Source: an uncultured Planctomycetaceae bacterium (GTDB lineage: Bacteria > Planctomycetota > Planctomycetia > Planctomycetales > Planctomycetaceae). From it: a DNA stretch of 61,682 nt. Numbering within the stretch: position 1 is the stretch's first letter; the number at the start of each line of letters is the position of its first letter. Where the stretch lies: positions 10,247 through 71,928 of the forward strand of contig CAZDGB010000001.1 of assembly GCA_964504645.1 (NCBI GenBank). Reading direction: 5' to 3'. The notes under the pieces are model-generated. The model saw only the letters and a program-made list of their open reading frames with translations. It was not told the DNA's origin and searched no databases. The position numbers were made by a program, and so were the translations under genes. Shown here one piece after another: positions 27,290 through 45,927 of the stretch.

Positions 27290-27445
27290 AAGACATGAAA
27301 CCGCAGATTTCGCAGATGCCCGCTGGTTTTAGCGAACCTGGATCGACAGGCTCGACGAACCACACGCTCTGACAATTCCGTTTTCATCTGCGAACCCTCT
27401 GCGAAATTTGTGGTTCCAGGTCTTCCAAGTTTTTCGGTGGAGATT

Positions 27446-28930
27446 ATGCCGCTCGTTTGCGTCAGTATCGCCCGCACGCGACACAAGATGATGCTCGCCG
27501 AGCACCGGGCCCTGGCCGATCGCGGCGCCCAGCTCGTGGAGTTGCGACTCGACTTCTTGCAGAAGGCTCCCGACCTGAACCGGCTGCTCGGCGAGCGGCC
27601 GACTCCGGTGATCGTCACCTGCCGCCGGCCGGCGGATCAGGGCCGCTGGGCCGGCAGCGAAGAGCAGCGGCAAATGCTGCTCCGCTCCGCCATCGCCGCG
27701 GGGGTCGAATACGTCGACCTCGAAGACGACATCGCCAAGAAGATTCCGCGCTATGGCAAGACGAAGCGGATCATCAGCCGGCACAACTTCGAGGAAACCC
27801 CCTACGAGCTTCCGGAACTGCACGAGCACCTGGCAAAGCTCGATCCCGACGTGATCAAGATCGCCACGATGGCGAACTCGCCGAGCGACTGCATCCGCAT
27901 GCTCGATCTCGTCCGGCATGCGAAGATTCCGACCGTCGGCTTCTGCATGGGCGAGTTCGGCCAAATGAGCCGTATCCTCTGCGGCAAGTACGGCGCCCCG
28001 TTCTCCTACGCCACCTTCAGCAAGGAGCGCGAGCTCGCGCCGGGGCAGTTCTCGTTCCAGGAAATGCGCGACGTCTATCACTTCGAGCAGATCAACCGGC
28101 AGACCGACGTCTTCGCCATCGTCGGCGATCCGGTGAGCCACAGTCTCAGTCCGCTCTTGCACAACACGGCACTACGAAAGATCGGCTACAACGGCGTCTA
28201 CCTGCCGCTCCGCGTGACGGAGGACCAGTTCGACCGGACACTCGACGAACTCGAAGAGCTCAAGTTCCGCGGCTACAGCGTAACGATCCCACACAAGGAA
28301 GCCGCGCTGCGGAAATATCCGCAGGCGGAGGAGGTCGTCCAGGCAATCGGCGCGGCGAACACGATCTATCGCGATTCCAGCGCTTTCTGGCGGAGCGACA
28401 ACACCGACTATGCCGCGGCGATGGACGCGCTGCAGCTCGCGCTCAAGCCGGGCGACACGCTGGCGGGCAAGCGGATTCTGATGCTCGGCGCGGGGGGCGT
28501 GGCGCGGGCTATTGGCTTCGGTGTGACGCGGGCCGGCGCGGCGCTCGTCATCGCCAACCGGACGCAGGAGCGGGCCAAGCGGCTCGCCGAACAACTGATG
28601 TGCCGGTTCACGAGTTGGGAGAACCGCGGCTCGGAATCGGTGGACATCCTGATCAACTGCACGCCGATCGGCATGCACCCCAACATCAACGAAACGCCCT
28701 TCCCGCAGCACTGGTTCCGCGAAGAGATGGGCGTCTTCGATACGATCTACAACCCGGAACAGACGCTGATGCTGAAAGAGGCCAGGGAACGCAACTGCCG
28801 GACGGTCTCGGGCATCGAGCTTTTCATCCGCCAGGCGCAAACGCAGTTCGAGCGGTTCACCGGCAAATCGGTCTCGCTGGACGACCTCCGCGAAACGCTC
28901 CGCAAGGGGATATCGGCGGCGAAACTGTGA
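27446..28930 (+). CDS. bifunctional 3-dehydroquinate dehydratase (type I) / shikimate 5-dehydrogenase
   Basis: ATG 27446. N-terminal half is DHQase-I-like (VELRLDFL, VIVTCRR, ISRHNFEETP, KIATMA). C-terminal half is AroE-like (FAIVGDPVSHSLSPLLHN, YSVTIPHK, NTD, GAGGVARAI). Confidence 0.85.
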   Translation: MPLVCVSIARTRHKMMLAEHRALADRGAQLVELRLDFLQKAPDLNRLLGERPTPVIVTCRRPADQGRWAGSEEQRQMLLRSAIAAGVEYVDLEDDIAKKIPRYGKTKRIISRHNFEETPYELPELHEHLAKLDPDVIKIATMANSPSDCIRMLDLVRHAKIPTVGFCMGEFGQMSRILCGKYGAPFSYATFSKERELAPGQFSFQEMRDVYHFEQINRQTDVFAIVGDPVSHSLSPLLHNTALRKIGYNGVYLPLRVTEDQFDRTLDELEELKFRGYSVTIPHKEAALRKYPQAEEVVQAIGAANTIYRDSSAFWRSDNTDYAAAMDALQLALKPGDTLAGKRILMLGAGGVARAIGFGVTRAGAALVIANRTQERAKRLAEQLMCRFTSWENRGSESVDILINCTPIGMHPNINETPFPQHWFREEMGVFDTIYNPEQTLMLKEARERNCRTVSGIELFIRQAQTQFERFTGKSVSLDDLRETLRKGISAAKL

Positions 28931-29038
28931 GGCGGTGAAATGAAAGGGCGAAAAGCTGGAACCGCAGATTCCAGCAGATTTCATCCGTAATGATTCGTGC
29001 CATCCGCGGCTAAATGCCTTTGAATTTGAGTTGGTGTG

Positions 29039-30055
29039 ATGTCGGACATCGATCCTCTTTCCCCCGCCGCGTCAACGCCGCCCTCGTTTGAGTCGCTCGC
29101 CCGGCAGCAGCTCATCGACGAGTTGAAGCAGACGGCGGACAAGCTGGCGAAAGACCAGGCGTCGCTGGGAGACTTGAAGCTCCTCGCGCGGGCGCTGAAG
29201 GAACTGCGTTACGCCTTCAAGGTCTTCACGCCGTATCGGCTGCGGCGGAAGGTGTCGGTCTTCGGCTCGGCCCGCACGCCCCCCGATCATCCCGATTTCC
29301 TGGCCTCGGTCGCGTTCGGCAAATTGATGGCCGCCGAGGGCTGGATGGTGGTGACCGGGGCCGGCAACGGCATCATGGAAGGAGCGCATCTCGGCGCGGG
29401 GCCGGAACTCTCGATGGGGGTCAACATCATGCTCCCCTTCGAGCAGGAGGCAAACCCCGTCATCGCCAAGGACGAAAAGCTCGTCACGCTCCGCTACTTC
29501 TTCACCCGCAAATTGATGTTCGTGAAAGAGGTCCACGCGGCGGCCCTCTTCCCCGGCGGCTTCGGCACGCAGGACGAGCTCTTCGAAATCCTCACGCTGG
29601 TGCAGACCGGCAAGCGCGACATGCTCCCCATCGTCTGCGTCGAAAGCCCCGGCAACGATTACTGGGAACAGTGGGTGCAATTCGTCAAACGGCAACTGCT
29701 CGACCGGAAATTGATCTCGCCGGAAGACCTGTCGCTGTTCCGCATCGCCAAGACCCCCGAAGACGCCGTCGCGGAGATCGTGCGTTTCTATTCGGTCTAT
29801 CACAGCGCCCGCTACATCCGCGACAAGCTGATCCTGCGTTTGCAAAAGGAGCCGACCGACGCGCTGCTCGCGCAGTTGAACGAGGACTTCGCGGGAATTC
29901 TCGATGGCGGCAAAATCGAACGCGTCAAGACGCATCCGCACGAGCAGGACGACGAACACACCCGGCATTTCCCGCGGATTTCGCTCCACTTCAACCGCCG
30001 CGACGCCGGCCGCTTACGCCAGATGATCGACGTCATCAACCGCGAGTTGGCGTAG
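29039..30055 (+). CDS. LOG-family (TIGR00730-type) nucleotide phosphoribohydrolase-like protein
   Basis: [21 protein letters not shown], and [12 protein letters not shown] (the PGGxGTxxE LOG signature). Has ~70-aa N-terminal and ~110-aa C-terminal extensions, PpnN-like. GTG 29036 is an alternative start. Confidence 0.8.
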
Positions 30056-30194: not shown

Positions 30195-31010
30195 TTGCGA
30201 ACGGTCTTGTGCGCCGGCAATAGTAGACCGGGACTCGCGTTCCACTCGATATCCGGGAAATCCGTGTCATCCGTGGCAAAAAATTCAGGCTATCTTCCCA
30301 CCGATGGCTACCTGCGCCCGCTGATGATCTGCCTGGCGTTGCAGAGCGCGCTCGCCGTCTATTCGGCCTGGACGTCGCCGCCGCAGGTGCCGTTGGTCGC
30401 GCGGTGGCTCGTCGGCATGGACGCCGCTGTCGCCGAACAGACGCCCGACGTCGACCGCGCGCGGGCCGTCTCGTGGCTGGAGATCGTGACGGGCATCTCG
30501 GCAGCCGTGCTGTTTTTCCCCATGCTGGCGCGGATCAACCAGAACGCCCGCGGGCTCGGCACGCCCGATCTGGATGCGACGCCCGGCTGGACGATCGGCT
30601 GCTTTCTGGTGCCGATCCTGAATCTCTACAAGCCGCACAAGGTCGTGCAGGAACTCTGGAAGGCGAGCTCGCCGTCGCCCGGCCCGTGGCGCGCCAATCC
30701 TGCGTCGCTGTTGATCACTGTCTGGTGGTGTCAGCGGCTGTTTGACGGCGGCTGGAGCCAGGCGCTGTGGCTGTGGCGGCGCTGGTATCCGCTGGAGACC
30801 GTCGTCGGTTTCCTGGGAGACATCGAAGTCGCACGCCTCGCCGCGATCTCACAAGGCCTGCACATCGTCCAATTCTCGCTAACGGGACTGGTCGCCGTAG
30901 CGCTGCATCGCCGGCAAACGGCGCGGCTGCAAATGCGGCGCGCGGAAGCGAAATCCGCCGGCGATGACAATTCGCTGTCGCGCCCCACCGTTGAGTTGGC
31001 GACTGTGTGA
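30195..31010 (+). CDS. polytopic membrane protein, DUF4328-like
   Basis: Several TM helices. GWTIGCFLVPILNLYKPHKVVQELWKAS resembles the conserved DUF4328 loop. The start is uncertain; the in-frame ATG at 30324 is the first ATG. Confidence 0.55.
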   Translation: MRTVLCAGNSRPGLAFHSISGKSVSSVAKNSGYLPTDGYLRPLMICLALQSALAVYSAWTSPPQVPLVARWLVGMDAAVAEQTPDVDRARAVSWLEIVTGISAAVLFFPMLARINQNARGLGTPDLDATPGWTIGCFLVPILNLYKPHKVVQELWKASSPSPGPWRANPASLLITVWWCQRLFDGGWSQALWLWRRWYPLETVVGFLGDIEVARLAAISQGLHIVQFSLTGLVAVALHRRQTARLQMRRAEAKSAGDDNSLSRPTVELATV

Positions 31011-31090: not shown

Positions 31091-32227
31091 ATGTTCGATC
31101 TCTCCACGGTCAGTCGATGGCTCGCATCCGGCTCGAAGTCCTCGGAGCCATGGGTCACCCGTCTGGCCATCGTCGCCTGCATCGGGGTGTTCATCGCGTT
31201 GGCCGCCTTGAACGACTATGAGAATTGGGACACGCTGGCGTCGTTCGGATATCTCCCGCCGGAGTCGATCTGGCGCGGCCGCCTCTGGAGCCTGATCACA
31301 TCTACGTTCGTGCACTTCGAACTGTGGCACGTCGCGTTCAACGTCTATTGGCTGTGGATGCTCGGCCGCCGGATGGAGCTTGCCGTCGGGTCGTTCGCCT
31401 ATCTGTTGTTCTTTCTGTCTGCCGCGTTTGTCAGTTCGACTCTACAACTGGCCGCATCCGACACGACCGGCATCGGTGCTTCGGGCGTCGGCTATGCGAT
31501 CTTCGGTTTTCTCTGGGCCGCCCGCGATCGAGACCCATCTTTTCGCGAAATCCTTACAGATCGATTGGTGAAACTGTTCCTGATCTGGCTCGTCGGCTGC
31601 ATCGTCGTCACGGAACTCGGCATACTCGAGATCGGCAACATGGCCCACGTCGCAGGACTGCTCTTCGGCCTGCTGGCGGCGCACGCCAGCTACTCTTTGC
31701 GCTATCAGGCCGAGGCGCGCGGCGGAGTGGCGGCGCTGGTGTCCGTGTCGGTTCTCGTTCTCGTCTGGTGTCCGTGGTCGGTCACTTGGCTCAGCATCAA
31801 AGCCTACGACGCCCATGAGGCAGGCCGGTACGAAGAGGCGGTCGGTTACTATTCGAGAATCCTCGATACCAACCCGGAGCATTCGTGGGCGCTTCTCAAT
31901 CGCAGCTATGTCTATTCGTCCCTGCATCGAAATGAACTGGCCGAAGCTGATCGCCAGGCGGCGCGGCGGATTGATCCGACGATTGATGAAGCGGATCGTC
32001 TTCGCGGAGAGGCCTATCAGGTCCATGCCGAAAACCGGCTCGAGGATGCGGTCTTGCTGTATTCGCGCCTCCTCGTGTTGAATCCTGCCGACGCCTGGGC
32101 CTTGCTCAATCGCAGCTACGCTTATCAGGCTCTCGGCAAAAATGATCTGGCGAAAGCCGACCGTGAAGTGGCACTGTCGATTGATCCCCAAATCGAGAAC
32201 TCGCGTTCACCAGACGCCGGCCAATAA
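31091..32227 (+). CDS. rhomboid-family intramembrane serine protease fused to C-terminal TPR repeats
   Basis: WSLITSTFVHFELWHVAFNVYWLW, GASGVGYAIFG (GxSG catalytic Ser) and MAHVAGLLFG (catalytic His). Four TPR-like units follow (NPEHSWALLNRSYVY..., NPADAWALLNRSYAY...). Confidence 0.8.
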   Translation: MFDLSTVSRWLASGSKSSEPWVTRLAIVACIGVFIALAALNDYENWDTLASFGYLPPESIWRGRLWSLITSTFVHFELWHVAFNVYWLWMLGRRMELAVGSFAYLLFFLSAAFVSSTLQLAASDTTGIGASGVGYAIFGFLWAARDRDPSFREILTDRLVKLFLIWLVGCIVVTELGILEIGNMAHVAGLLFGLLAAHASYSLRYQAEARGGVAALVSVSVLVLVWCPWSVTWLSIKAYDAHEAGRYEEAVGYYSRILDTNPEHSWALLNRSYVYSSLHRNELAEADRQAARRIDPTIDEADRLRGEAYQVHAENRLEDAVLLYSRLLVLNPADAWALLNRSYAYQALGKNDLAKADREVALSIDPQIENSRSPDAGQ

Positions 32228-32306
32228 AGCCGCTTCATCCCCTTTTTTGCGAGGAATCGCTATCCTGAAATGGCTGGTCGCTTGACCGGTCTTGAACTCC
32301 GACAGG

Positions 32307-35300
32307 ATGCTTCCTCGCATGGCAGATACTGATTCCGCGGCCGCGCGCGAGCCGCTCGCCGTCATTGGCTTGAGTTGTCTCTTCCCCAAAGCGTCCGGCG
32401 TCGACGAGTTCTGGTCGAACATCCGTTGCGGCGTTGATGCGATCACCGAAATCCCCGCGACGCATTGGGATCCCGACGCCTATTTCGACGCCGACCCCAA
32501 AGCGCCCGACAAAACCTACGCCCGCCGCGGCGGGTTTTTGTCGCCGGTCGACTTCGATCCGCTCGAGTTCGGCATCGCACCGAGCAACCTGGAAGCGATC
32601 GATACGTCGCAGCTGCTAGGGCTCGTCGGCGCGAAACGGGCGCTGGATGACGCCGGGTATGGAGCCGGGCGAAACTTCGATCGCTCGCGCATCGGCTGCA
32701 TCCTCGGCGTGACGGGGACGCTGGAGATGGTGATCCCGCTGGGGGCGCGGCTCGGTCATCCGAAATGGCGGCAGGCGTTGAAAGACGCCGGGGTCGCGGA
32801 CGACGTCGCTGCGGACGTCATCCAGCGGATCGGCGAGTCGTATGTGCCGTGGCAGGAGAACTCGTTTCCCGGTCTCCTGGGGAACGTCGTCGCGGGACGC
32901 ATCGCCAACCGGCTCGATCTCGGCGGCACGAACTGCGTGGTCGATGCGGCGTGTGCGAGTTCGCTCAGCGCGATGCACCTCGCGGCGCTGGAACTCTGGT
33001 CGGGCCGGGCCGACATGGTCGTGACGGGCGGCATCGACACGTTCAACGACATTTTCATGTACATGTGCTTCAGCAAGACGCCGGCCCTCTCGCCGACCGG
33101 CGATGCGAAGCCGTTCAGCGAGCACGGCGACGGGACGATCCTCGGCGAAGGCGTCGGCATGGTCGTGCTGAAACGGCTGCGCGACGCCGAACGCGACGGC
33201 GATAAAATTTACGCATTGATCCGTGGCATCGGCACATCGAGCGACGGCGCGGGGAACGCCGTCTACGCTCCGAAAAAAGAAGGCCAGGTCCGCTGCTTGC
33301 AAGACGCCTATCGCTCCGCGGGGGTTTCGCCCGCGACAGTGGAACTGATCGAAGCGCACGGCACCGGGACAAAAGTCGGCGACGCGACGGAACTCGCGGG
33401 GCTGACCGAAGTCTTTCAATCGACCGAGCAGACCGGCCGCTGGTGCGCCGTCGGATCGATCAAATCGCAGATCGGCCACACGAAAGCGGCGGCTGGCGCG
33501 GCCGGTGTGTTGAAAGCGATTCTCGCCCTCGATCACCGCGTGCTGCCGCCCACGATCAAACTCGATGCGCCGCTGCCGGCGCTCAAGGACGACTCGTCGC
33601 CGCTGTACGCCAACACGCACAGCCGTCCGTGGCTCGCGCGGCGGAACCACCCGCGCCGCGCCGGTGTGAGCGCGTTCGGCTTCGGCGGTAGCAATTTTCA
33701 TTGCGTGCTGGAGGAATCGCCGGTGAATAATCCCGGCATCGATTGGGGCGACGACGTCTTCTTCGCCGCATGGTCGGCCGATTCGCGCGAGAAACTCGCC
33801 ACGCAGCTTAACGACTGGCAGCCCGTTGGGGATCGTGCCGAACAGCGTCGCCGCGCGGCGCAGACGCGGGCTCAATTCGACGTGACTCACGCATATCGCC
33901 TGGTGATCGTCGCCGACGCGGATTCGGCGAACGTTTCGCAACTCGTCGTTTCGGCGCGGAAGAATCTGGCGACTTACGCCGATCGCGCCGCGTGGTCGAC
34001 GCCGGACGGAATCTACTTCGGCCAGGGACCGCGGGCCGGAAAACTCGGACTGTTGTTTCCGGGACAAGGATCGCAGTACGTCAACATGCAGCGCGAGCTG
34101 GCGTGTCGATTTCCGCTGCTGCAGGACGTGCTCACCGAGGCGAACGATGTCTTTGCGGCATCCACCGATCGCCCGTTACGGCTGAGCGACTATGTCTATC
34201 CCTTCCCCGCGTTTGATGAGAAGGCACGCGATCGACAGGAAGCCGCGCTGCGTGACACCGAGATCGCCCAGCCTGCGCTCGGCGCGGTCAGCCTGGGATT
34301 GCTCGCGGTATTGTCGGAGTTCGGCGTGCGGGCCGATGTGGTGGCCGGGCACAGTTACGGCGAATTGACGGCGCTCTGCGCGTCGAAGCGGTTCGCGCCG
34401 GACGCCCTCTATCGGCTGTCGCTGCTGCGCGGTCGGTTGATGGCGGAGGCCCAGGAGATCGAAGGGGGAATGCTCGCCGTCGGGGCGCCGCTGAATCAAG
34501 TCGAAGCCGCGCTCAAGGAAGCGGCCGTCGATCTGGTGATTGCCAATCGCAACAGCCCCACGCAGGTCGTGCTCTCGGGCCGCGTGTCCGAGTTGGATCG
34601 CGCCGACGAAGTGTTGACGCGCCGGAAGATTCGCGGCAAACGGTTGCCGGTCGCCGCGGCGTTTCACAGCCCGCTGGTCGCCGCCGCGAGTTCGCGGTTC
34701 CGCCCGGTGCTGGACGAGATCGAGTTCCGCGCGCCGGAGATCCCGGTCTATGCGAACACGCATGCCGAGGAATACCCGCTCGACGCCGACGAGGCCCGCA
34801 CGCTGCTCGCCGGGCAACTCGCGCAGCCGGTCGAGTTCGTGCGGCAGATCGAGAACATGTACGCCGCCGGCGTGCGGACGTTTGTGGAAGTCGGCCCGGG
34901 CGCCGTGCTGACAGGCCTCGTCGGCTCGATCCTGTCCGGCCGTGAGTTCCGCGCGATCGCCGTGGACGCCTCCGCGGGGCGCCGCTCGGGGATGCTCGAC
35001 ATGGCGCTCGCCTTGGGACAACTCGCCGTCGCGGGCGTGCCGGTGAATGTCGCCGCGTGGCACCCGCTGCTCCCTCAAGCCTCAAGTCTCCAGCCTCAAG
35101 CCTCGCCTTCGCCGCGGCTGACGATCCCGATCTGCGGCGCGAACTACGTGAAACCGCGCACGCCGAAACCGCCGCGCATTGTGGAAAGTCCGAAGGTGGA
35201 AGGCGCAACACGGAAGGAAGCGAACGGGCAGAGCAACGCGCCGGTTCCAACGTCTCCCCCTCGTCAGGTCTCCAGCCTCAAGCCTCAAGCCTCGACACCA

Positions 35301-38300
35301 AAAGCAGCAGGTGTAACGCGGAAGGAAAGACCGCTGGCATTTTCTCAACCCCCCACTTCCAACCCGCCACCCGCCAGCCTCCACGTCCTGCAGCAGATGT
35401 TCGAGCAGACGGCTCGCTTGCATCAGCAGTTCCTCACCGGCCAGGAGCAGGCGCTGGCGACGCTGGAACGGCTCGCGGGGGGGAGTGTCGTACAGGAAAC
35501 AGTCGCTGTAACACCGGTTCCCGCAGTCGAAGCTCCCAGACTTCAACCACCGGTCCCCGTGTTCCAACCGGCCGCAGTAGTCAAACCCGCGAACCCTGCT
35601 CCGCTTCCTACCCCGGCCGCTCCTCCGACGGCCGCATCCAATGCTCTTTCGTCCGCCGTGCTGCAAATCGTCTCTGAGAAAACCGGCTACCCCACGGAGA
35701 TGCTACGGCCGGAGATGAGCCTCGATCACGACCTGGGGATCGATTCGATCAAGCGAGTAGAAATCCTCTCGGCCTTGCAAGAGCGGCATCCGTACCTGCC
35801 CGCTGTCACGCCCGATCAACTGGGCACGCTCCACCGCCTCGACGACGTCATTCAACTTCTCAGTCAGGCCAACAACGTCGATTTCGCGGATTCGCCCCCG
35901 CCGTCGCTCGCGGTTTCGCAGTCATCGCCGGAAGCAACCCTCTCCCTCGAGTCCCCGCGCGCGATTCCCTTGACCGATTTCGGCCGCCGGCTGTCGATCG
36001 CGTCCGGCGCGACGTTCTTGATTACCGACGACGGCGGCGAACTTTCGGCGCGGTTGTCCCAGGAACTCCAGCGGCGCGGGTTCGCCACGCAGGTTGTCGC
36101 GCTGCAGGCTCCCGACCGTTCGCTGCCGGACCACCTCGCCGGGTTGATTCTCATCGCGCCCTGCACTGGGCTGAGCGATACGCATCTCTGGAATGCCCTG
36201 CACTGGACGCAGGTCTGCGGTTCATCCTTGCGCCACACCGGCGGCGACGCAGTCTTTGCTACGATCAGCCGGCTCGATGGGCGATTCGGATTTGACTCGG
36301 CTGTGCCCGCGGCGAGTTCGTTGAGCGGTGCGCTGGCCGGTCTGGCGAAAACCGTCCGCCACGAATGGCCCGGCGTCACCGCCACGGCGTTCGACATTTC
36401 TACAGATTCGCCCAGCGGCGAGTTCATTTCGCAACTCGCGGATCGACTACTGTCGTCGGGCCCGGCGGAAATCGGTTTCACGGCAGATGGCTGGACGCAG
36501 GTCGAACTCGATCCCCGCGACGTGTCGGCTCCAGCAAATCCGCCGATTCAACCCGGCGATCTGGTGCTCGTCACCGGCGGAGCGCGGGGCGTGACGGCGG
36601 CGTGTGCGCTCGCCGTCGCAAACGCCTGGCGTCCGCGGCTCGTTCTCTGCGGCCGCACGCCGCTAGCAACGGACGAACCCGCGTGGCTGGACGGACGTCA
36701 TTCCGCGGCCCAGATCAAATCGGCGCTCGCTCAATATCGGCCGGCGGGAACGCCATTGCGGCAGATCGACCAGGAATGCCGGCAGATCCTCGCCAATCGC
36801 GAAGTCAATGCGACGCTGGCGAGTTTGCAGTCGTCGGGCGTTGACGCCGAATATCTGTCGCTCGACCTGCGCGACAGCGAAGCGGTCGCGGCGGCGCTGA
36901 GCGACGTGCAACGCCAATACGGCCCGCTGCGCGGCGTCGTGCATGGCGCCGGCGTGCTCGAAGACCGCCGCATCGAAGACAAAACACACGAACAATTCGG
37001 CCACGTCTTCGCCACAAAAATCGTCGGCCTGCGGAACGTGCTCGCGTCGCTTGAGCCGGACGAACTGCGGTTTCTGGCTCTCTTCTCGTCGTCAACGGGG
37101 CGCTTCGGCCGCACGGGGCAGGTCGACTACGCGATGGCCAACGAGGCGCTCAACAAGCTCGCCGCCGAGTTCCAGATGAACCACCCCCGCTGCCGGACGA
37201 GGTCGTTCAACTGGGGCCCGTGGAACGGCGGTATGGTGACCGATTCGCTCAAGCCTCTCTTCGCGAAGGAAGGGATCGGCCTCATCCCGCTCGACGCCGG
37301 CGCCGACCTGCTCGTCCGCGAACTGGAACGCGAGACGGGAACGGTGGAACTCGTCGTCCTGGCGAAGCTGGCGGGAAGTGCGCAGGCGAAAGGCGAAAGG
37401 CAGAAGGAAGACGTTCCTGCCTCTCCTTCCAACCCCCAACCTCCAACCCCCAATACCCAACTCACATCCCTCGTCCTCGATATCGTCTCCGAGAAAACCG
37501 GCTACCCCGTCGAGATGCTCAAGCCGGAGATGTCGCTCGACCACGACCTCGGCATCGATTCCATCAAGCGCGTGGAGATTCTTTCCGCGCTACAGGAACG
37601 CCGGCCCGAGTTGCCCGCCGTCACGCCGGAACAGTTGCAGACGCTGCATCGTCTCGCCGACGTGATCGCGCTCTTGGAAGGAAGTGCGCCGGCGGAAGGC
37701 GGAAACCGGAAGGAAGAGGCTCCTGCTGCTCATTCCAATTCCCAACACTCAACCCTCAACCCTCAACTCTCAACCCTCGTCCTCGACATCGTCGCCGAGA
37801 AAACCGGCTATCCCGTCGAAATGCTCAGGCCCGAGATGTCGCTTGATCACGACCTCGGCATCGATTCCATCAAGCGCGTGGAAATCCTTTCCGCGCTACA
37901 GGAACGCCGGCCCGAATTGCCTGCCGTCACGCCGGAGCAGTTGCAGACCCTGCATCGCCTCGCCGACGTGATCGCCCTGCTGGCGGGAAATGCGCAGGTG
38001 GAAGGTGGACGGCGGAAGGAAGAAGCCCTTCCGACTTCCGCCTTGGCTCTTCCGCTCTTTGCCCAACCTGCAACCCCCAACCCACAACCTTCCCGCAGCG
38101 GCTGGGAACGCACGCTCTCCGTCGCCGGGCATCCGTATCTCGCGTCTCACGTTCTCGGCGGCAAGGCCGTGCTGCCGACGGCGATGATTCTCGAAATCCT
38201 GGCTCACGCGGCGATGCACCATCATCCGGGACTCGAATTCGCCGGGCTGTCGAACCTGCGGATCTTCAAGGGCGTGCGTCTCGATTGGGACGAACGGCTC

Positions 38301-38933
38301 GTCCTGCGGGCGCTGACCGACAAAGCCGTGCGGCAAGGCAGCGACTTCCAGATTCCGACGCGGCTGGCGGGCAGCGCCGACAACCGTGAAGTGCACCACG
38401 CGGAGGCCACGATCTCGTTGAGTGCGACTCGCCGGCGCGCGGCGGAGAGCCGATTGCACCTTCATGGCCGCTACACGGCGACTCCTGTCAACTGGTACAA
38501 CGACCTCTTGTTCCACGGCTCGTTGCTGCAGGGGTTGGTATCGATCGAGCGACTGACGTCCGAGGGGATCGTCGTCCAAGCGCAGTCGGCGCCGCCGCCG
38601 ACCCAATGGCTGGCCGATGCGTGGCGGGGAAGCTGGCTCGCCGATCCGCTGGCGATCGACGTCCTCTTGCAGGCGATCATCGTCTGGACGCAGACCGTGT
38701 GCGGTCGGGCGTCGCTGCCGACGGCGATCGGGAGCTATCGCCAGTTCCAGCGGACGTTCCCGGCGGACGGCGTGCGAGTCGCCGTGCGAGCCGAACGAAA
38801 GAACGACGCGACGGTCGTCGCCGACGCCGAGATTCTCGACGCCCGCGGCACGCCGGTCGCGGACTTCGCGGGCATCGAATACGTCCTCGACGCGCAGCTT
38901 ACGGCAGCGTTCGGGCGGAATCGGTTCGAGTGA
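32307..38933 (+). CDS. PfaA-like iterative type I polyketide/fatty-acid synthase, KS-AT-ACP-KR-ACP-ACP-DH
   Basis: Single ~2200-aa ORF (track 32292..38933; ATG at 32307 or 32319). KS: DAACASS (Cys codon 32952-32954), HGTGT, GHT. AT: GQGSQ, GHSYG (Ser codon 34353-34355), AFHSP. Three ACPs with LGIDSIKRVEIL (Ser codons 35745, 37560, 37866). KR: LVTGGARGV ... YAMAN. DH: HVLGGKAVLP (HxxxGxxxxP). Confidence 0.9.
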   Translation: MLPRMADTDSAAAREPLAVIGLSCLFPKASGVDEFWSNIRCGVDAITEIPATHWDPDAYFDADPKAPDKTYARRGGFLSPVDFDPLEFGIAPSNLEAIDTSQLLGLVGAKRALDDAGYGAGRNFDRSRIGCILGVTGTLEMVIPLGARLGHPKWRQALKDAGVADDVAADVIQRIGESYVPWQENSFPGLLGNVVAGRIANRLDLGGTNCVVDAACASSLSAMHLAALELWSGRADMVVTGGIDTFNDIFMYMCFSKTPALSPTGDAKPFSEHGDGTILGEGVGMVVLKRLRDAERDGDKIYALIRGIGTSSDGAGNAVYAPKKEGQVRCLQDAYRSAGVSPATVELIEAHGTGTKVGDATELAGLTEVFQSTEQTGRWCAVGSIKSQIGHTKAAAGAAGVLKAILALDHRVLPPTIKLDAPLPALKDDSSPLYANTHSRPWLARRNHPRRAGVSAFGFGGSNFHCVLEESPVNNPGIDWGDDVFFAAWSADSREKLATQLNDWQPVGDRAEQRRRAAQTRAQFDVTHAYRLVIVADADSANVSQLVVSARKNLATYADRAAWSTPDGIYFGQGPRAGKLGLLFPGQGSQYVNMQRELACRFPLLQDVLTEANDVFAASTDRPLRLSDYVYPFPAFDEKARDRQEAALRDTEIAQPALGAVSLGLLAVLSEFGVRADVVAGHSYGELTALCASKRFAPDALYRLSLLRGRLMAEAQEIEGGMLAVGAPLNQVEAALKEAAVDLVIANRNSPTQVVLSGRVSELDRADEVLTRRKIRGKRLPVAAAFHSPLVAAASSRFRPVLDEIEFRAPEIPVYANTHAEEYPLDADEARTLLAGQLAQPVEFVRQIENMYAAGVRTFVEVGPGAVLTGLVGSILSGREFRAIAVDASAGRRSGMLDMALALGQLAVAGVPVNVAAWHPLLPQASSLQPQASPSPRLTIPICGANYVKPRTPKPPRIVESPKVEGATRKEANGQSNAPVPTSPPRQVSSLKPQASTPKAAGVTRKERPLAFSQPPTSNPPPASLHVLQQMFEQTARLHQQFLTGQEQALATLERLAGGSVVQETVAVTPVPAVEAPRLQPPVPVFQPAAVVKPANPAPLPTPAAPPTAASNALSSAVLQIVSEKTGYPTEMLRPEMSLDHDLGIDSIKRVEILSALQERHPYLPAVTPDQLGTLHRLDDVIQLLSQANNVDFADSPPPSLAVSQSSPEATLSLESPRAIPLTDFGRRLSIASGATFLITDDGGELSARLSQELQRRGFATQVVALQAPDRSLPDHLAGLILIAPCTGLSDTHLWNALHWTQVCGSSLRHTGGDAVFATISRLDGRFGFDSAVPAASSLSGALAGLAKTVRHEWPGVTATAFDISTDSPSGEFISQLADRLLSSGPAEIGFTADGWTQVELDPRDVSAPANPPIQPGDLVLVTGGARGVTAACALAVANAWRPRLVLCGRTPLATDEPAWLDGRHSAAQIKSALAQYRPAGTPLRQIDQECRQILANREVNATLASLQSSGVDAEYLSLDLRDSEAVAAALSDVQRQYGPLRGVVHGAGVLEDRRIEDKTHEQFGHVFATKIVGLRNVLASLEPDELRFLALFSSSTGRFGRTGQVDYAMANEALNKLAAEFQMNHPRCRTRSFNWGPWNGGMVTDSLKPLFAKEGIGLIPLDAGADLLVRELERETGTVELVVLAKLAGSAQAKGERQKEDVPASPSNPQPPTPNTQLTSLVLDIVSEKTGYPVEMLKPEMSLDHDLGIDSIKRVEILSALQERRPELPAVTPEQLQTLHRLADVIALLEGSAPAEGGNRKEEAPAAHSNSQHSTLNPQLSTLVLDIVAEKTGYPVEMLRPEMSLDHDLGIDSIKRVEILSALQERRPELPAVTPEQLQTLHRLADVIALLAGNAQVEGGRRKEEALPTSALALPLFAQPATPNPQPSRSGWERTLSVAGHPYLASHVLGGKAVLPTAMILEILAHAAMHHHPGLEFAGLSNLRIFKGVRLDWDERLVLRALTDKAVRQGSDFQIPTRLAGSADNREVHHAEATISLSATRRRAAESRLHLHGRYTATPVNWYNDLLFHGSLLQGLVSIERLTSEGIVVQAQSAPPPTQWLADAWRGSWLADPLAIDVLLQAIIVWTQTVCGRASLPTAIGSYRQFQRTFPADGVRVAVRAERKNDATVVADAEILDARGTPVADFAGIEYVLDAQLTAAFGRNRFE
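32349..33710 (+). other. PKS domain: ketosynthase (KS)
   Basis: EPLAVIGLSCLFPKA ... VDAACASSL ... EAHGTGTKVGD ... GSIKSQIGHTKAAAG ... GFGGSNFHCVLEE. Boundaries are approximate. Confidence 0.85.
34040..34930 (+). other. PKS domain: acyltransferase (AT)
   Basis: GLLFPGQGSQY ... VVAGHSYGELTAL ... VAAAFHSPLV ... FVEVGPGAVLTGLV. Boundaries are approximate. Confidence 0.85.
35646..35866 (+). other. PKS domain: ACP1
   Basis: LSSAVLQIVSEKTGYPTEMLRPEMSLDHDLGIDSIKRVEILSALQERHPYLPAVTPDQLGTLHRLDDVIQLL. Confidence 0.85.
35990..37350 (+). other. PKS domain: ketoreductase (structural + catalytic subdomains)
   Basis: Pseudo-Rossmann segment ATFLITDDGGELS. Then GDLVLVTGGARGVTAACA ... VVHGAGVLED ... FSSSTGRFGRTGQVDYAMANEAL. 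Boundaries are approximate. Confidence 0.75.
37374..37985 (+). repeat. 306-bp tandem duplication (linker + ACP) inside the PKS gene, with a third partial linker copy up to ~38095
   Basis: GGAAGTG at 37374 and 37680, and the variant GGAAATG at 37986, are in register at 306-nt spacing. The ACP2 and ACP3 DNA segments differ at roughly 1 position in 10 by eye, mostly at synonymous sites. Confidence 0.85.
37461..37682 (+). other. PKS domain: ACP2
   Basis: LTSLVLDIVSEKTGYPVEMLKPEMSLDHDLGIDSIKRVEILSALQERRPELPAVTPEQLQTLHRLADVIALLEG. Confidence 0.85.
37767..37988 (+). other. PKS domain: ACP3
   Basis: LSTLVLDIVAEKTGYPVEMLRPEMSLDHDLGIDSIKRVEILSALQERRPELPAVTPEQLQTLHRLADVIALLAG. Lies exactly 306 nt downstream of ACP2. 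Confidence 0.85.
38098..38930 (+). other. PKS domain: PKS-type dehydratase (DH)
   Basis: WERTLSVAGHPYLASHVLGGKAVLPTAMILE, with His codon at 38148-38150 inside the HxxxGxxxxP motif. Double-hotdog-sized C-terminal region. Confidence 0.7.
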
Positions 38934-40626
38934 TCGGCTCGGCTGTCGACAGGCTGCGGACCGTATCGCCGAGACGCAGACGGTATTCGTCGCTGCCGCG
39001 GCGGACGGTCGCCTGATTCGCGGCGATGCCGGTGATCACGCCCGAGATGTCGGCAATCTTCAGTTCGTCGCCGACGCGCAGGATCGACTTGCGGTTCTGC
39101 GACCTATCGAGCAGCCAGAGTTCCGGGGCTTCGTTGACGCTGCCGACGGCGATGACGACGGTCTGCTTCGCCGTGTCCTCGGCGACTTTCAGCGAAACCG
39201 TGGCCGTGGACGACGCCGGCGGCGCGCCGTCGTCAGTCGCCGTGATCGAAATGGCGAGCGGTCCGAGCGCCTGATCGTCGCCCGGCGTCCAGGTGATCTC
39301 GCCGGTCGTTTCGTTGAGGACGCAGCCGGACGGGACCGAACCGCCGAACTTGTAGGTCAGCTTCTGTCCGTTGTCGTTATCCTTGGCTTCGACTTTTTTC
39401 TTCCAGGGCAGGCCGCGATAGACCGTTTGCGGCGCGAGCGACGGGAAGCGCGGCGTCGAATTGGGTTCCGCGAATTTCAGCGCCAGCTCTTCCGAGACGA
39501 CGCCGTTCGGTGCGGATGGATGCTTCACTTCGACCGTCGCGGTGTATTCGCCCGCGGGGAAGTCTCGTTCCGCCTTCCAGACGAGCTGGCCCGTCGTCTC
39601 ATTCAACGTCAACCCGGCGGGAATTGCGCCGACGAAGCGGTATTTCGGTTCGCCGCGAGCCGGGTCGAAATCGCGGGCCGCGATCGAGAAGTCCCAGCGG
39701 CGGCCGCGAATCGCCAGCGGCGGCGAGAACGGGCCGAATTTGAAATCGTACTCCATCGGCGGCGTCGGTTTGACGAAGACGTTTGTCCGCACGAACTCGC
39801 GGAACTCTTCGCGGCCCAGCGGAGTCACGTCGCGGGCGACTTTCACCAGGCTCAGCGGCGCTTTGGCCGGATGCTCGGCCGGTTCGGTCCGCTCCACGCC
39901 GCGGGCCACCGTCCACGTGCGACCATTGAAGCTCGTCACGTCGAGCAATTCGCGATCGAGCCGGATGCGGAAGGGCGCCTTATGCGGAAAGCCAGTCCCC
40001 GCGGAGACCGTCAGTTCGGTGGCCGACGGCCCCAGGTCGTCCGCCAGATTCGTGCGGGGGAACATTGGTCCCCGGGCCGGCACGCCGACGAGCGCCAACG
40101 CGTTCGCTTCGAGCGTGAACCGCACCGGCGGATCGCCGATGACGTCGTCGCTGCTGATCTGCAACCGGCCGACGCGGTGCAACAGGTCGGTCCGATAGAA
40201 CCGGTCGAGCAGTTCGGCGAGTTGCGACAACCGGCCCTCGCCGTCGATCTGCACGACGACTTCGAGATAGACGTTCTTCCGCGAGATGGAGCGCGGCACC
40301 ACGGTGATCTCGTCGAAGCCGACGGCGTGCGCCAGTTCCGTCAGCCACGCCGTGTATTGTCGATGCGCTTCCAACGCCTCCGGACGGGTCCGCTTGCCGG
40401 CATCGGGAGCGAAGCTCTTCGCCTGCCACGCCATCATCTTCGCTTCGGCGAGTTCGATCGCCGTGAGCTTGTCCTCTTTCTGGCCGACGCGGTCGCGTCG
40501 CTCGGCGACCTGATGTCGCAAATCGCGCAACGGTTCCAGGAACAGACGATCGCCCCACACGCTCCCCTGCCACAGCAGCACAGCGGCGATCAATCCCAAC
40601 AACAGTTGTTTCTGACGCGTCGGCAT
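38899..40626 (-). CDS. PilO/GspM-like N-terminal domain fused to two Ig/cadherin-like domains and a PilP/GspC-like C-terminal domain
   Basis: ATG 40626 overlaps the upstream stop (TGATG). N-terminus has a TM helix (LLLGLIAAVLLW), a coiled coil, and a ferredoxin-like PilO/GspM-type segment. Two LTLNETTGQLVW / VLNETTGEITW Ig-type repeats follow. The C-terminal ILRVGDELKIADISGVITGIAANQATVRRGSDEYRLRLGD resembles the PilP/GspC HR domain. Confidence 0.55.
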   Translation of the reverse strand: MPTRQKQLLLGLIAAVLLWQGSVWGDRLFLEPLRDLRHQVAERRDRVGQKEDKLTAIELAEAKMMAWQAKSFAPDAGKRTRPEALEAHRQYTAWLTELAHAVGFDEITVVPRSISRKNVYLEVVVQIDGEGRLSQLAELLDRFYRTDLLHRVGRLQISSDDVIGDPPVRFTLEANALALVGVPARGPMFPRTNLADDLGPSATELTVSAGTGFPHKAPFRIRLDRELLDVTSFNGRTWTVARGVERTEPAEHPAKAPLSLVKVARDVTPLGREEFREFVRTNVFVKPTPPMEYDFKFGPFSPPLAIRGRRWDFSIAARDFDPARGEPKYRFVGAIPAGLTLNETTGQLVWKAERDFPAGEYTATVEVKHPSAPNGVVSEELALKFAEPNSTPRFPSLAPQTVYRGLPWKKKVEAKDNDNGQKLTYKFGGSVPSGCVLNETTGEITWTPGDDQALGPLAISITATDDGAPPASSTATVSLKVAEDTAKQTVVIAVGSVNEAPELWLLDRSQNRKSILRVGDELKIADISGVITGIAANQATVRRGSDEYRLRLGDTVRSLSTAEPITRTDSARTLP

Positions 40627-42113
40627 CAAGGAGTTTTGGCTTGAGGCTTGAGGCTTGAGGCTTGGGGGACCGCCGCCGGTTTTGCCAGCAGGTTGGCGTT
40701 GATTTCGAAGCGGTAGGCGTATTCGTCGTCGTTGCTCGTTTGCGTCAGTTGCCGCGGCTGGAGGCTGTAGCTCTTCGAGTCGATCATCCGCTGCTGGAGT
40801 TGCAGCACGTCTTCCCGCGACTTGGCGTTACCGGTCGCCTGCAAGTTGCCGGCGGACTCTCCCTGCCCGGCGGTGAAGGCGTACTGCGAAAGGTACATCC
40901 GGTCGGTCCCCTCCATCAGTCCTTCGAGAGCCGACATCTGCTGCAATTGATTCCGGCTCGCGGCCTGCCACTGCGAAATCTGGTTGGCTGCGGCGAGCGT
41001 CGCTTCGCCGGGCTTGATCTTGCTGTCGAGATCGATCTCCCGCTGCTGGAGCGCGTCGAGTTCCCGCAGCAGGCTGCCGCGAGTCCCTTCGACCACGCCG
41101 AAGAACAGAGCCGCAACCAGCAATGCCGCCGCCGCGCCGACGGCGAGGCGTTGCTTCCGCAAATTGACTTTCGCGGGCGGTTGCCGGGGATGCAGAAAAT
41201 CGAATGGCGCCGTGCGGTGGTCGGCCTCCGCGGCCGCCAATCCGATGAGCGCGGGACTCAATTCCTTCGCTTGCGTTTCGCGGATCGCAGAAATTCGAGC
41301 CGCATCCACGCGCTCCGCCGGCGCGCCGATTCGTTCATTCAACGCGGCGAGCAACGCGTCGTCGGCCGTTCCGACGACGTAGGCCCGATCGATTTGCAAC
41401 TGCGGGTGCAATCGCTGGGCGGCGACGATCGTCCGGCTGATTTCCGGCAGCAGCGCCAGGTTTGACGCCGTGTCCCCTTCATGCGGCAAGCGGGCCGAGT
41501 GGGCGTACTGCAGGCGGTTGTTCGTGACGATGACGAGTTCCACCCGCTCGTCGTTCAACCATGCTCCGAGCATCGTCTGCGGGGCCGGTTCGTTTTTCGG
41601 CCGCGAAACGTGTGCGATGAATTCTGCCAGACCGATCGAACTGAACGTGATCGCCGCCGGGGCGAGTCCGGCGGCCCGCAACACGGCCTGCACGCCGTCG
41701 ACCTGTGCACGGGAGGCGGTGAGCGCCAGCACCGGACGGCCATGCCCGCCGGGCGATTTTTCCAAGGGCAGATAATCGAGAGCGAGTTGTTCGAGCGGAG
41801 TCGTCGAACGCGCGGCGGCCTGGAATTTGACAAGGTCCGGCAGTTCCTCGTCGGGAACATCCGGGACTTCGAGATGCCGCAGAATGACGTCTTCCCGCGA
41901 GAGGCAGACGATCACCCGTTCGGGCGGAACGGCGGGGTTCTTCAACAGGCCGCGGAGCTTGTCGCCGGCCTGGGCCGGGGATTGGAGCGGATCGAATTCG
42001 GCAGGCCAAGCATGGCTGAACGCTTCCTGCACGCGCACGGAGCCGTGTTCCGACTCCGCGATGCATCCGCAGAGTCGGCGGCGTTCCCACTGCAACAGGA
42101 CGATCTGTGCCAT
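40626..42113 (-). CDS. PilM-like (actin/FtsA-fold) protein fused to a PilN-like TM + periplasmic domain
   Basis: Trimmed to ATG 42113 (MAQIVLLQW...). RVIVCLSREDVILRHLEVPDVPDEELPDLVKFQAAARSTTPLEQLALDY matches the PilM N-terminal region. Then a TM helix (LAVGAAAALLVAALFFGVV), a coiled coil, and a PilN-like domain. The C-terminal tail PQASSLKPQAKTP is encoded by a GCCTCAAG repeat. Confidence 0.6.
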   Translation of the reverse strand: MAQIVLLQWERRRLCGCIAESEHGSVRVQEAFSHAWPAEFDPLQSPAQAGDKLRGLLKNPAVPPERVIVCLSREDVILRHLEVPDVPDEELPDLVKFQAAARSTTPLEQLALDYLPLEKSPGGHGRPVLALTASRAQVDGVQAVLRAAGLAPAAITFSSIGLAEFIAHVSRPKNEPAPQTMLGAWLNDERVELVIVTNNRLQYAHSARLPHEGDTASNLALLPEISRTIVAAQRLHPQLQIDRAYVVGTADDALLAALNERIGAPAERVDAARISAIRETQAKELSPALIGLAAAEADHRTAPFDFLHPRQPPAKVNLRKQRLAVGAAAALLVAALFFGVVEGTRGSLLRELDALQQREIDLDSKIKPGEATLAAANQISQWQAASRNQLQQMSALEGLMEGTDRMYLSQYAFTAGQGESAGNLQATGNAKSREDVLQLQQRMIDSKSYSLQPRQLTQTSNDDEYAYRFEINANLLAKPAAVPQASSLKPQAKTP

Positions 42114-42421
42114 GCCGTAATTGTTCTTTCCAGAGATATGCGTCAATTCATCATGGTGCCGGGCCTCTGGTCGATCAAGGCGGATCAACGGGCCGAACCA
42201 ACTCCCTTGGGGGAACCGATACTGCGAACCGTTTCTGCGGGGGCGTTGTCAAAAGGCAACGGACATCGTTGGTTCGCGAAGCGCAAGCGTTCAGGAACGA
42301 CGAACCTTCTTGCAGTCATTCCGCCGAACGGATTACGATCCGTAGACCATATTTAACCCCTGTCCGCTCCCTCGGTTTCTGAAGTTTTCCCGTCCCGCTG
42401 CCTCCAACCCCCAATCTACCT

Positions 42422-43762
42422 ATGCCCCGTTCGTCCGATCCGTTTGACGCTTTGCGCGAGGCCGTGCGGCTTTCGCCGGACAATATCCCGTTGCGGCAGC
42501 ATTTGGCGGAGCAATTGTTGTCGTCCGGATTCGCCGATCAGGCCGAGGCCGAGTTCCGCAAAGCGCTCACGCAAGCGCCGCAGAACCGCGAGTTGAAAGT
42601 CGGCCTCGCGCGGGCCTTCTTTCAGCAGAGCAAGGACAGTGCGGCCCTCGTCATCGTCGAGGACCTGCTGAAGCAGATCGATCCGCCGGCGGAGGCGTAT
42701 CTCCTCGGAGCGCGATTGATGATTCGGGCCGGCGACATTCCGCGGGCGGTCGCTCAATACAAAGCGGCCATCGAATCCGATCCTGATCTCGCCGACGCCG
42801 AACTCGCGGGCCGCCTGGGCATCGACGCGTCGCCCGACGCCGAAGTCGTCGACGGTCGGATTCGCGCAGGCTACGAGGAAGCGGGCGGCGAGTTCGAAGT
42901 CCAGATCGAGAAGCCCAAGATCAAGTTCGCAGAGGTCGGCGGGATGGAGCCGCTCAAGGAAGAGATCCGGCTGAAGATCCTCTACCCGCTGCAGCATCCG
43001 GAGCTCTACAAAGCGTACGGCAAAACGATCGGCGGCGGCATTCTGATGTATGGCCCGCCCGGCTGCGGCAAGACGTATCTCGCCCGCGCCACCGCCGGTG
43101 AACTCGGCGCCGGCTTTTTGTCGGTCGGCATCAACGACGTGCTGGAGATGTGGATCGGCAGCAGCGAACGCAATCTGCACGAGCTCTTCGAGCAGGCCCG
43201 CAGCCACACGCCGTGCGTTTTGTTCTTCGATGAAGTCGATGCGCTCGGCGCTCGCCGGTCCGACTTGCAGCACAGCGCGGGGCGGCAATTGATCAATCAG
43301 TTTCTCGCCGAGATGGACGGCGTGAACTCGTCCAACGAAGGGGTGCTGATTCTCGCTGCGACGAATGCGCCGTGGCATCTCGATCCGGCGTTCCGCCGAC
43401 CGGGGCGCTTCGATCGCATCCTCTTCGTGCCGCCGCCAGATCAAACGGCTCGCGCCGAAGTCTTGCGGATTCTCTGCCAGGGGAAGCCGCTGCAAGATGT
43501 CGACTTCGATCATCTCGGCAAGAAGACACCGGAGTTTTCCGGAGCCGATTTGAAGGCCGTGCTCGATCTGGCCATCGAACAGAAATTGAAGCAGGCGTTC
43601 AAGGACGGCGTGCCGAAACCGCTGACGACCGCCGATCTCGCGAACGCCGCGAAGACGCTGCGGCCGACGACGAAGGAGTGGTTCAGCACGGCCCGCAACT
43701 ACGCGCTCTACTCGAATCAAGGCGGGACATACGACGACATCTTGAAGTACCTGAAGATGTGA
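42422..43762 (+). CDS. TPR-domain AAA+ ATPase (CDC48/FtsH-type AAA module, no protease domain)
   Basis: N-terminal TPR-like helices. Walker A ILMYGPPGCGKTYLA, Walker B VLFFDEVDAL, second region of homology ILAATNAPWHLDPAFRRPGRFDR. Confidence 0.85.
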   Translation: MPRSSDPFDALREAVRLSPDNIPLRQHLAEQLLSSGFADQAEAEFRKALTQAPQNRELKVGLARAFFQQSKDSAALVIVEDLLKQIDPPAEAYLLGARLMIRAGDIPRAVAQYKAAIESDPDLADAELAGRLGIDASPDAEVVDGRIRAGYEEAGGEFEVQIEKPKIKFAEVGGMEPLKEEIRLKILYPLQHPELYKAYGKTIGGGILMYGPPGCGKTYLARATAGELGAGFLSVGINDVLEMWIGSSERNLHELFEQARSHTPCVLFFDEVDALGARRSDLQHSAGRQLINQFLAEMDGVNSSNEGVLILAATNAPWHLDPAFRRPGRFDRILFVPPPDQTARAEVLRILCQGKPLQDVDFDHLGKKTPEFSGADLKAVLDLAIEQKLKQAFKDGVPKPLTTADLANAAKTLRPTTKEWFSTARNYALYSNQGGTYDDILKYLKM

Positions 43763-44018: not shown

Positions 44019-44022
44019 AAGG

Positions 44023-44048
44023 CCGCAATTTGCGGGTTTGTGCACACA
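44023..44048 (+). repeat. left terminal inverted repeat (26 bp)
   Basis: CCGCAATTTGCGGGTTTGTGCACACA is the exact reverse complement of 47084..47109. The outer 13 nt (CCGCAATTTGCGG) is itself a near-palindrome. Confidence 0.9.
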
Positions 44049-44076
44049 GCCGCTTTCCCGCGCCCGCCCACCTTGA

Positions 44077-44093
44077 CGTAGCCACGTTAAGTC
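44077..44093 (+). promoter_or_regulatory. 17-nt GTAGCCAC motif, copy 1
   Basis: CGTAGCCACGTTAAGTC, preceded by TTGA. Lies 42 nt upstream of ATG 44136. Confidence 0.55.
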
Positions 44094-45913: not shown

Positions 45914-45927
45914 AGGAGTCAATAGTC

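Follow-up and report, generated by a model that had tools for sequence, protein, structure and literature searches.

An unlinked planctomycete PfaA-like synthase with acyl carrier proteins on both sides of its ketoreductase

A 61,682-nt stretch of DNA from an uncultured Planctomycetaceae bacterium (contig CAZDGB010000001.1, positions 10,247 to 71,928; termed here the window, 61.7 kb) carries one large gene of the PfaA family, the multidomain subunit of polyunsaturated fatty acid (PUFA) synthases, in which the acyl carrier proteins (ACPs) are located on both sides of the ketoreductase (KR). The encoded protein is an unusual variant of the known PfaA machine and not a self-sufficient machine of a new type. 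We favour, with a probability of about 0.55, the reading that it serves as PfaA in a “secondary lipid” synthase that has been reduced and dispersed, consisting of pfaA and a physically separate pfaD, in an uncultivated Planctomycetales-like bacterium. PUFA-synthase-like “secondary lipid” synthases are widespread, and most of them have no known product.

The gene is a single unbroken open reading frame (ORF) extending from 32292 to 38933 on the forward strand, with ATG codons at 32307 and 32319 that give proteins of 2208 and 2204 aa, respectively, the latter corresponding to the public gene call (P0001). The protein scores 1544.3 bits against the NCBIfam model TIGR02813 (omega_3_PfaA), for which the cut-off is 1010.1. 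Pfam searches and motif mapping revealed a complete set of ketosynthase (KS), malonyl-acyltransferase (AT), tandem ACP, KR and polyketide synthase (PKS)-type dehydratase (DH) domains with their catalytic residues present (Table 1), and on sequence grounds the domain assignments appear unambiguous. The Pfam span of the KS covers aa 15-419 and its C-terminal extension reaches residue 531. The AAFHS motif predicts an AT of the malonyl type. The catalytic half of the KR comprises aa 1420-1640, while the extent of its N-terminal structural half was estimated by aligning homologues; the DH is covered by PKS_DH_N (1922-2016) and PS-DH (2059-2191). Pfam marks three PP-binding stretches, and the motif LGIDSIKR occurs three times, at aa 1143, 1748 and 1850. 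The motif positions give the order KS-AT-ACP-KR-ACP-ACP-DH, with one ACP before the KR and two between KR and DH, in place of the canonical KS-AT-(ACP)n-KR-DH with its single ACP array. Pfam detected no phosphopantetheinyl transferase (PPTase), thioesterase or enoyl reductase (ER) domain in the protein. The initial annotation, made from the letters of the window, had described a PfaA-like synthase with intact motifs in every domain and this same domain order; TIGR02813, the domain content, the mapped KS, AT, ACP, KR and DH motifs and the Pfam hits bear out all three statements.

The ACP-encoding DNA is repetitive. ACP2 and ACP3 form a tandem duplicate with 85% DNA identity and a period of 306 nt (37352-37651 versus 37658-37957), their protein sequences being 90% identical, while the DNA of ACP1 is 73-74% identical to that of ACP2 and ACP3 (74% to the ACP2 repeat copy at 37461-37666). 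The KR-to-ACP and ACP-to-DH junctions consist of unique sequence and, as the repeats are only 73-85% identical, a repeat-driven mis-assembly is not credible. ACPs downstream of the KR were seen in six independent assemblies.

The rarity of this order was assessed by motif mapping on the 120 best homologues drawn from 5.8 billion clustered proteins. An ACP after the KR is present in 5 of the 119 other homologues, namely the five closest clusters, and absent from the remaining 114; the earlier remark that the order is unusual thus holds, just five of the 120 best homologues having it in common. Two of these clusters (P0002 and P0003) display the order ACP-ACP-KR-ACP-DH and three (P0004, P0005 and P0006) the order ACP-KR-ACP-DH. 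The P0002-type order was also found in a GTDB species genome (locus L008, metagenome-assembled genome (MAG) STL-PLA41), whose PfaA is 73% identical to that of the window. In a neighbour-joining tree of the KS-AT region, the post-KR-ACP proteins (window, five clusters and the GTDB MAG) are monophyletic in 100 of 100 bootstraps, which points to one event in which an ACP entered the KR-DH linker, with later changes in copy number on both sides of the KR. Individual ACP copies are most alike within one protein, even across the KR, and in P0005 the pre-KR and post-KR copies, including the linker that follows them, are 94% identical. This within-protein likeness is the hallmark of gene conversion continuing among the repeats.

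All domains, the post-KR ACPs included, are under purifying selection. Against two orthologues the ratio of non-synonymous to synonymous substitution rates (dN/dS) is ~0.19-0.22 for the whole gene, with domain values of 0.08-0.09 (KS), 0.13 (AT), 0.23-0.33 (KR) and 0.22-0.28 (DH), and the post-KR carriers yield 0.19 (ACP2 versus the P0005 copy) and 0.16 (ACP3 versus the P0003 copy), all of which are rough values as dS is ~1 and near saturation. Tandem ACPs of PfaA are reported to be interchangeable and tethered by flexible linkers, with ACP number governing throughput. Given this interchangeability, the relocated ACPs are most simply regarded as a tolerated by-product of repeat recombination, and the new position is probably tolerated and not mechanistically decisive. 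Pfa-like enzymes are already known to reshuffle their domains: PfaD homologues can carry an additional ACP, and both pfaD-pfaA and pfaBC occur as fusions. The literature search turned up no description of ACPs placed between KR and DH, and none of pfaA/pfaD pairs that are conserved although unlinked.

Comparison of 80 related loci from GTDB species genomes revealed three patterns of gene context. In the first, pfaD-pfaA-pfaBC is followed by oleA/oleB in most loci whose contig is long enough. It occurs in Geobacter/Geomonas, Gemmataceae, Isosphaeraceae (Singulisphaera), Verrucomicrobia, Gammaproteobacteria and others (an example is locus L006) and corresponds to “Type I” of Shulse and Allen 2011. 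The PfaA proteins of these clusters are 47-55% identical to the window protein and possess the same domain types, and this arrangement is the probable ancestral state. It differs from the window in the presence of a fused PfaBC (KS, chain-length factor (CLF), AT and two FabA-type DH domains), mostly together with ole genes, and in having 1-5 ACPs by motif count, all of them located before the KR.

In the second pattern, exemplified by Schlesneria paludicola, only pfaD-pfaA is present. It equals “Type J” in Shulse and Allen 2011, who reported it from the complete Planctomyces (Planctopirus) limnophilus genome as “just two genes” and “apparently partial”, so that a planctomycete pfaA without pfaB and pfaC is not a novelty. 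The window protein groups beside the planctomycete KS sequences of Types I and J. Like Type J, it is a planctomycete PfaA that has few ACPs and lacks an adjacent pfaBC; the two are ~62% identical and form sister clades in the KS-AT tree. In contrast, Type J has pfaD directly upstream of pfaA and the order KS-AT-ACPn-KR-DH, whereas the window has no pfaD in 61.7 kb and two ACPs between KR and DH.

The third pattern is a solitary pfaA. Eight MAGs labelled ‘Planctomycetaceae bacterium’, with 59-73% identity, display it, as do the metagenome contigs of P0003, P0005, P0007 and P0008; pfaD, pfaC and ole genes were not found in the available flanks, which extend up to 10 kb. These solitary pfaA genes are monophyletic in 78 of 100 bootstraps and sister to the Schlesneria-type group (neighbour-joining, KS-AT region), with the post-KR-ACP clade nested inside them. 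In the sub-clade of P0007 and P0008, the solitary pfaA is followed downstream, after 4-6 kb, by a second, split PKS set (L007:20284-26531; L004/L016:22405 to the end), which comprises a 1498-aa KS-AT-ACP protein (without precomputed Pfam hit), a 498-aa KR and a 1619-aa KS-AT-PS-DH-PPTase (ACPS) protein; no such set was found in the window. A FabH-like/ACP_syn_III gene is located a few kb from the solitary pfaA in L002 (5689-6804, reverse strand) and L008 (18893-19795, forward strand). Both genes give a weak OleA-like tblastn match (52-53 bits) and have no counterpart in the window.

A separate pfaD was found in both of the solitary-pfaA relatives whose MAGs were checked (JAXMBR01 and JBGATC01). 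In the first, which is the MAG closest to the window, the PfaD P0214 is encoded on JAXMBR010000010.1 and the pfaA (L008, ACP-ACP-KR-ACP-DH) on JAXMBR010000002.1; in the second, the PfaD P0222 is encoded on JBGATC010000001.1 and the solitary pfaA (L017) on JBGATC010000006.1. The JAXMBR PfaD scores 637 bits against TIGR02814, for which the cut-off is 449. A third MAG, GCA_964409115.1, whose pfaA lay outside the comparison, encodes a PfaD (P0223) that is 93% identical to P0214, and the two loci are syntenic, with the gene series pfaD, EPSP synthase, FAA hydrolase, trpA and trpB. P0214, P0223, P0210, P0226 and P0239 (NCBI source) constitute a PfaD subclade with 79-93% mutual identity that parallels the post-KR-ACP clade of PfaA. 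P0239 might conceivably come from the genome that holds the window, which is speculation and carries no weight here. When Schlesneria PfaD was used as query, the matches above 70% identity belonged to the pfaD-pfaA group, and at least 13 Schlesneria-type PfaD/PfaA pairs were located on equally long contigs, which suggests linkage. A second tier of PfaD proteins, 61-66% identical to that of Schlesneria, was never found on a contig as long as that of any solitary PfaA, and its distance to Schlesneria is the same as that between the window PfaA and Schlesneria PfaA. The separate pfaD of the relatives indicates that the gene was not lost in this lineage but parted from pfaA and was kept at a locus of its own. 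We considered whether the pfaD locus might be a rearranged part of the window; tblastx of L090, L091 and L088 against the window gave matches at noise level only, and the idea was discarded. The stand-alone pfaD loci (L090:10001-16402 and L091:10001-16486) adjoin aroA, and the window pfaA follows an aroD/aroE fusion within 3.4 kb; these aromatic-amino-acid neighbours may be a coincidence.

No pfa operon with pfaB, pfaC or pfaD surrounds the window gene. About 45 ORFs across the window, picked by third-position GC, were scanned with Pfam and NCBIfam, and neither PPTase, thioesterase, FabA-type DH, type III PKS nor ER was found among them. tblastn with PfaD (Schlesneria and Geomonas), Geomonas PfaBC, OleA and OleB against the 61.7 kb returned the PKS itself only, leaving the window free of partners for 32 kb upstream and 23 kb downstream of the gene. 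The absence of partner genes within ~25 kb, as first noted in the initial annotation, is therefore confirmed and is conserved in relatives. Its description of an ER-less single polypeptide is probably wrong, as pfaD is present, unlinked, in both relatives checked. It had also recognised that pfa partners elsewhere in the genome would speak against such a polypeptide; this has come true in part, namely for pfaD in the two relatives. Two short-chain dehydrogenase/reductase genes (23418-24224 and 49074-49862; adh_short_C2 label ‘enoyl-ACP reductase’) were evaluated as a trans-acting ER and rejected, since both are generic members of their family that fall below every curated cut-off, including that of FabI.

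Under the reading of a dispersed pfaA-pfaD synthase, an ancestral pfaD-pfaA-pfaBC-oleABCD cluster, still whole in Geobacter, Gemmataceae and Isosphaeraceae, would have been trimmed in Planctomycetaceae to pfaD-pfaA (Type J), and in the window lineage the two remaining genes would have separated, leaving pfaA alone and a trans-acting pfaD at its own locus. PfaA would provide KS, malonyl-AT, three ACPs, KR and DH and PfaD the ER, together a full set of activities like that of an iterative type I fatty acid synthase (FAS), and malonyl units would be extended to a long acyl chain that is saturated for the most part and may be hydroxylated in places or carry a single double bond. A mainly saturated product is expected because PfaA and PfaD lack the KS-CLF and the FabA-type isomerising dehydratases required for methylene-interrupted cis double bonds. 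The carriers would be primed by a PPTase encoded elsewhere; in Shulse and Allen 2011, Type J is missing from the list of types that have a PPTase linked to them. Off-loading of the finished chain may fall to a trans-acting enzyme, whether a thioesterase, an acyltransferase or a later synthase that accepts the chain directly from the ACP, as in ArsA/ArsD. Within PfaA, the ACP repeat would have been inserted once into the KR-DH linker, after which the copy number varied (1+2 in the window, 2+1 and 1+1 in relatives) and gene conversion homogenised the copies.

Among functional analogues of a system of PfaA plus ER only, the type I FAS ArsA/ArsD of Azotobacter vinelandii (‘Type P’) is the best characterised; it is likened here by description and not by sequence homology. 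It reportedly needs no thioesterase, the chain going straight from the ACP to the enzyme that acts next. Two type III PKS genes belong to the ars cluster, in contrast with the ~45 window ORFs, where no chalcone/stilbene synthase-type gene was found. The marine PUFA synthases of Shewanella, Moritella and Colwellia share with the window protein TIGR02813, KS, malonyl-AT, LGIDSI-type ACPs, KR and PKS-type DH. Their PfaA displays the order KS-AT-ACP(4-6)-KR-DH and is encoded in a pfaA-D operon together with pfaE, while the window protein has three ACPs split 1+2 and no operon.

Several points weigh against the dispersed pfaA-pfaD reading. The presence of pfaD in the window’s own genome extrapolates from two relatives, and both of their MAGs are bins, in which a pfaD contig could have been mis-binned; two independent bins and the matching phylogenetic distances of pfaD and pfaA argue against such mis-binning. 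The genome-wide absence of pfaC, the nature of the product and the route of its release extend what was seen in the window and in flanks of at most 10 kb, and a literature search found no characterised product for planctomycete pfaA, hglE-KS, Type J or solitary pfaA. The near-saturated dS likewise reduces the weight of the selection estimates.

It is doubtful, though worth serious consideration, that the window gene belongs to a PUFA/olefin pathway that is complete but fully dispersed, in which pfaBC, pfaD, pfaE and perhaps oleABCD are scattered and PfaA, as in the Type I systems, helps to supply polyunsaturated chains for the synthesis of head-to-head olefin (C31:9) or PUFA. The nearest complete clusters in the tree are of the pfaD-pfaA-pfaBC-ole kind, the unlinked pfaD of the relatives implies that other partners could be unlinked too, and ole genes can sit elsewhere in the genome (Shulse and Allen 2011). 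However, the sister Type J keeps pfaD beside pfaA without an adjacent pfaBC, and in the complete genome of P. limnophilus only pfaD and pfaA were reported (Shulse and Allen 2011). In addition, neither pfaBC nor ole genes occur in the window or in the flanks of ~10 relatives, and an ACP number of 2-3 against 4-6 would fit a role with lower throughput.

A bolder set of proposals is unlikely when taken jointly. In these, unlinked PfaA and PfaD might constitute a minimal yet complete iterative type I lipid synthase that dispenses with KS-CLF/PfaC, PfaB and thioesterase, the post-KR ACPs might reflect a division of labour in which they serve the reductive and dehydrating end and the trans-acting ER, and the product might be an undescribed planctomycete lipid; or else pfaD might serve something different, with PfaA alone acting as an ER-less polyene or hydroxy-acyl synthase.

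The last notion has a counterpart in enediyne PKSs such as SgcE and CalE8, evolutionary relatives of PUFA synthases with a KS-AT-ACP-KR-DH domain set but no ER. That the window protein is an autonomous iterative PKS of this kind, lacking both ER and thioesterase and producing a conjugated polyene or a hydroxy/enoyl chain, is distinctly unlikely. No ER was found in the protein or the window, the domain set resembles that of these polyene-forming enzymes and the solitary arrangement is conserved in relatives. Yet in both relatives checked a conserved PfaD persists apart from pfaA, and PfaD and PfaA branch into matching subclades, which is hard to explain had PfaD lost its only known partner. Enediyne PKSs furthermore have only one ACP, carry a PPTase domain at the C terminus and rely on a dedicated thioesterase encoded beside them; none of these traits is present in the window protein or its neighbours, and the protein lies firmly within the PfaA family.

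We consider it quite improbable that PfaA builds a lipid starter and that its ACPs hand this directly to another PKS (type I or III) encoded elsewhere, with the ER supplied by PfaD or by type II FAS. The second PKS set near the solitary pfaA of the P0007/P0008 sub-clade would be consistent with such a relay, which has precedents in ArsA/ArsD and in hybrid Pfa-PKS-NRPS pathways, and type III PKS genes are recorded in the literature for 70% of described planctomycete species. Against it, no such PKS was found in the window or near the other post-KR-ACP relatives, and as to how the chain is made, the proposal overlaps with the dispersed pfaA-pfaD synthase.

An artefact or relic, either mis-assembled across the ACP repeats or decaying after the loss of its cluster, is scarcely conceivable, for although repeats can mislead assemblers and Type J has been called ‘apparently partial’ (Shulse and Allen 2011), the divergence of the repeats, the unique junctions and the recurrence of this architecture class in six independent assemblies stand beside an unbroken 6.6-kb ORF with all catalytic motifs and dN/dS values of 0.08-0.33.

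The proposed dispersed pfaA-pfaD system is not a new kind of machine; it is a natural experiment on ACP placement. A natural PfaA whose carriers lie on either side of the KR probes the freedom with which tethered ACPs can be moved within a megasynthase, which is useful for engineering PUFA and other lipid synthases. Where pfaA and pfaD are conserved yet unlinked, genome mining that relies on clusters (antiSMASH-style) will take such systems for incomplete or “ER-less” ones. Together with a PPTase, the two genes offer a tractable system for learning what planctomycete Type J enzymes make.

The source organism looks Planctomycetales-like from its sequence. The nearest named relatives of the window MutL are Planctellipticum variicoloris (62%) and Schlesneria paludicola (59-64%), both Planctomycetales of the family Planctomycetaceae, and no Pirellulales name appeared among the 120 best hits. 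The window PfaA is 62% identical to that of S. paludicola, a distance equal to that of MutL and consistent with vertical descent. MutL and the PfaA phylogeny thus place the window with Planctomycetales/Planctomycetaceae (Schlesneria, Planctellipticum) and not, as the initial annotation had supposed, with Pirellulales.

Table 1. The pfaA-like gene, its domains and the neighbouring genes of the window
Feature	Position	Strand	Evidence and remarks
pfaA-like gene	32307..38933	+	ORF, TIGR02813
Ketosynthase, aa 15-470	32349..33716	+	PF00109, PF02801; DAACASS aa 213-219, HGTGT 351, GHTK 390
Acyltransferase, aa 583-871	34053..34919	+	PF00698; GHSYG 681, AAFHS 784
ACP1, aa 1113-1189, canonical pre-KR site	35643..35873	+	PP-binding and NCBIfam ACP; phosphopantetheine Ser in LGIDS aa 1143-1147; DNA repeat copy 35646-35851
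Ketoreductase, aa ~1215-1650	35949..37256	+	PF08659, PF00106; GGARGVT 1423, YAMAN 1608
ACP2, aa 1717-1795, between KR and DH	37455..37691	+	PP-binding, best stretch 1722-1786; LGIDS 1748
ACP3, aa 1819-1897, second post-KR ACP	37761..37997	+	LGIDS 1850
PKS-type dehydratase, aa 1922-2191	38070..38879	+	PF21089, PF14765; HxxxGxxxxP 1948, DxxxQ (DVLLQ) in C-terminal half
MutL	25379-27289	+	Same strand as pfaA, upstream
AroD-AroE fusion (type I 3-dehydroquinase / shikimate dehydrogenase, 506 aa)	27410-28930	+	Pfam
LOG-family protein	29036-30055	+	Pfam
DUF4328 membrane protein	30195-31010	+	Pfam
Rhomboid-TPR protein	31091-32227	+	Pfam
He_PIG Ig-domain protein	38899-40629	-	Convergent, 35-nt overlap with PKS stop
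PilM-like protein	40626-42188	-	
TPR-AAA ATPase	42422-43762		Downstream of pfaA

The DUF4328, rhomboid, He_PIG and PilM-like neighbours are syntenic in the post-KR-ACP relatives L002, L003 and L005 and are replaced in the next sub-clade; since their synteny is limited to the post-KR-ACP sub-clade, these genes are not counted as parts of the system. A forward-strand ORF that overlies the 3' end of the PKS (38617-40644) was rejected as a gene, as it has no Pfam hit and the reverse strand there encodes the conserved He_PIG protein. Each of the four post-KR-ACP genomes examined (the window, L002:9041-9820, L008:5487-5957 and L005:2-151) has a DUF4328 gene upstream of pfaA, and the next sub-clade does not; no other neighbour of unknown function follows the post-KR-ACP clade in this way.

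Promoter and terminator scans of the window were uninformative and no tRNA gene was found anywhere in it. The reverse strand encodes, at 8769-9764, a tyrosine recombinase that has a SAM-like N-terminal domain and belongs to the XerC/XerD or phage-integrase family. An IS1595-family transposase (DDE_Tnp_IS1595 with a zinc ribbon) is encoded at 44870-45766, also on the reverse strand, and the GC content around it falls from ~0.63 to 0.55-0.60 over ~44000-47000. Its location in this low-GC stretch suggests that it is probably a recent insertion sequence.

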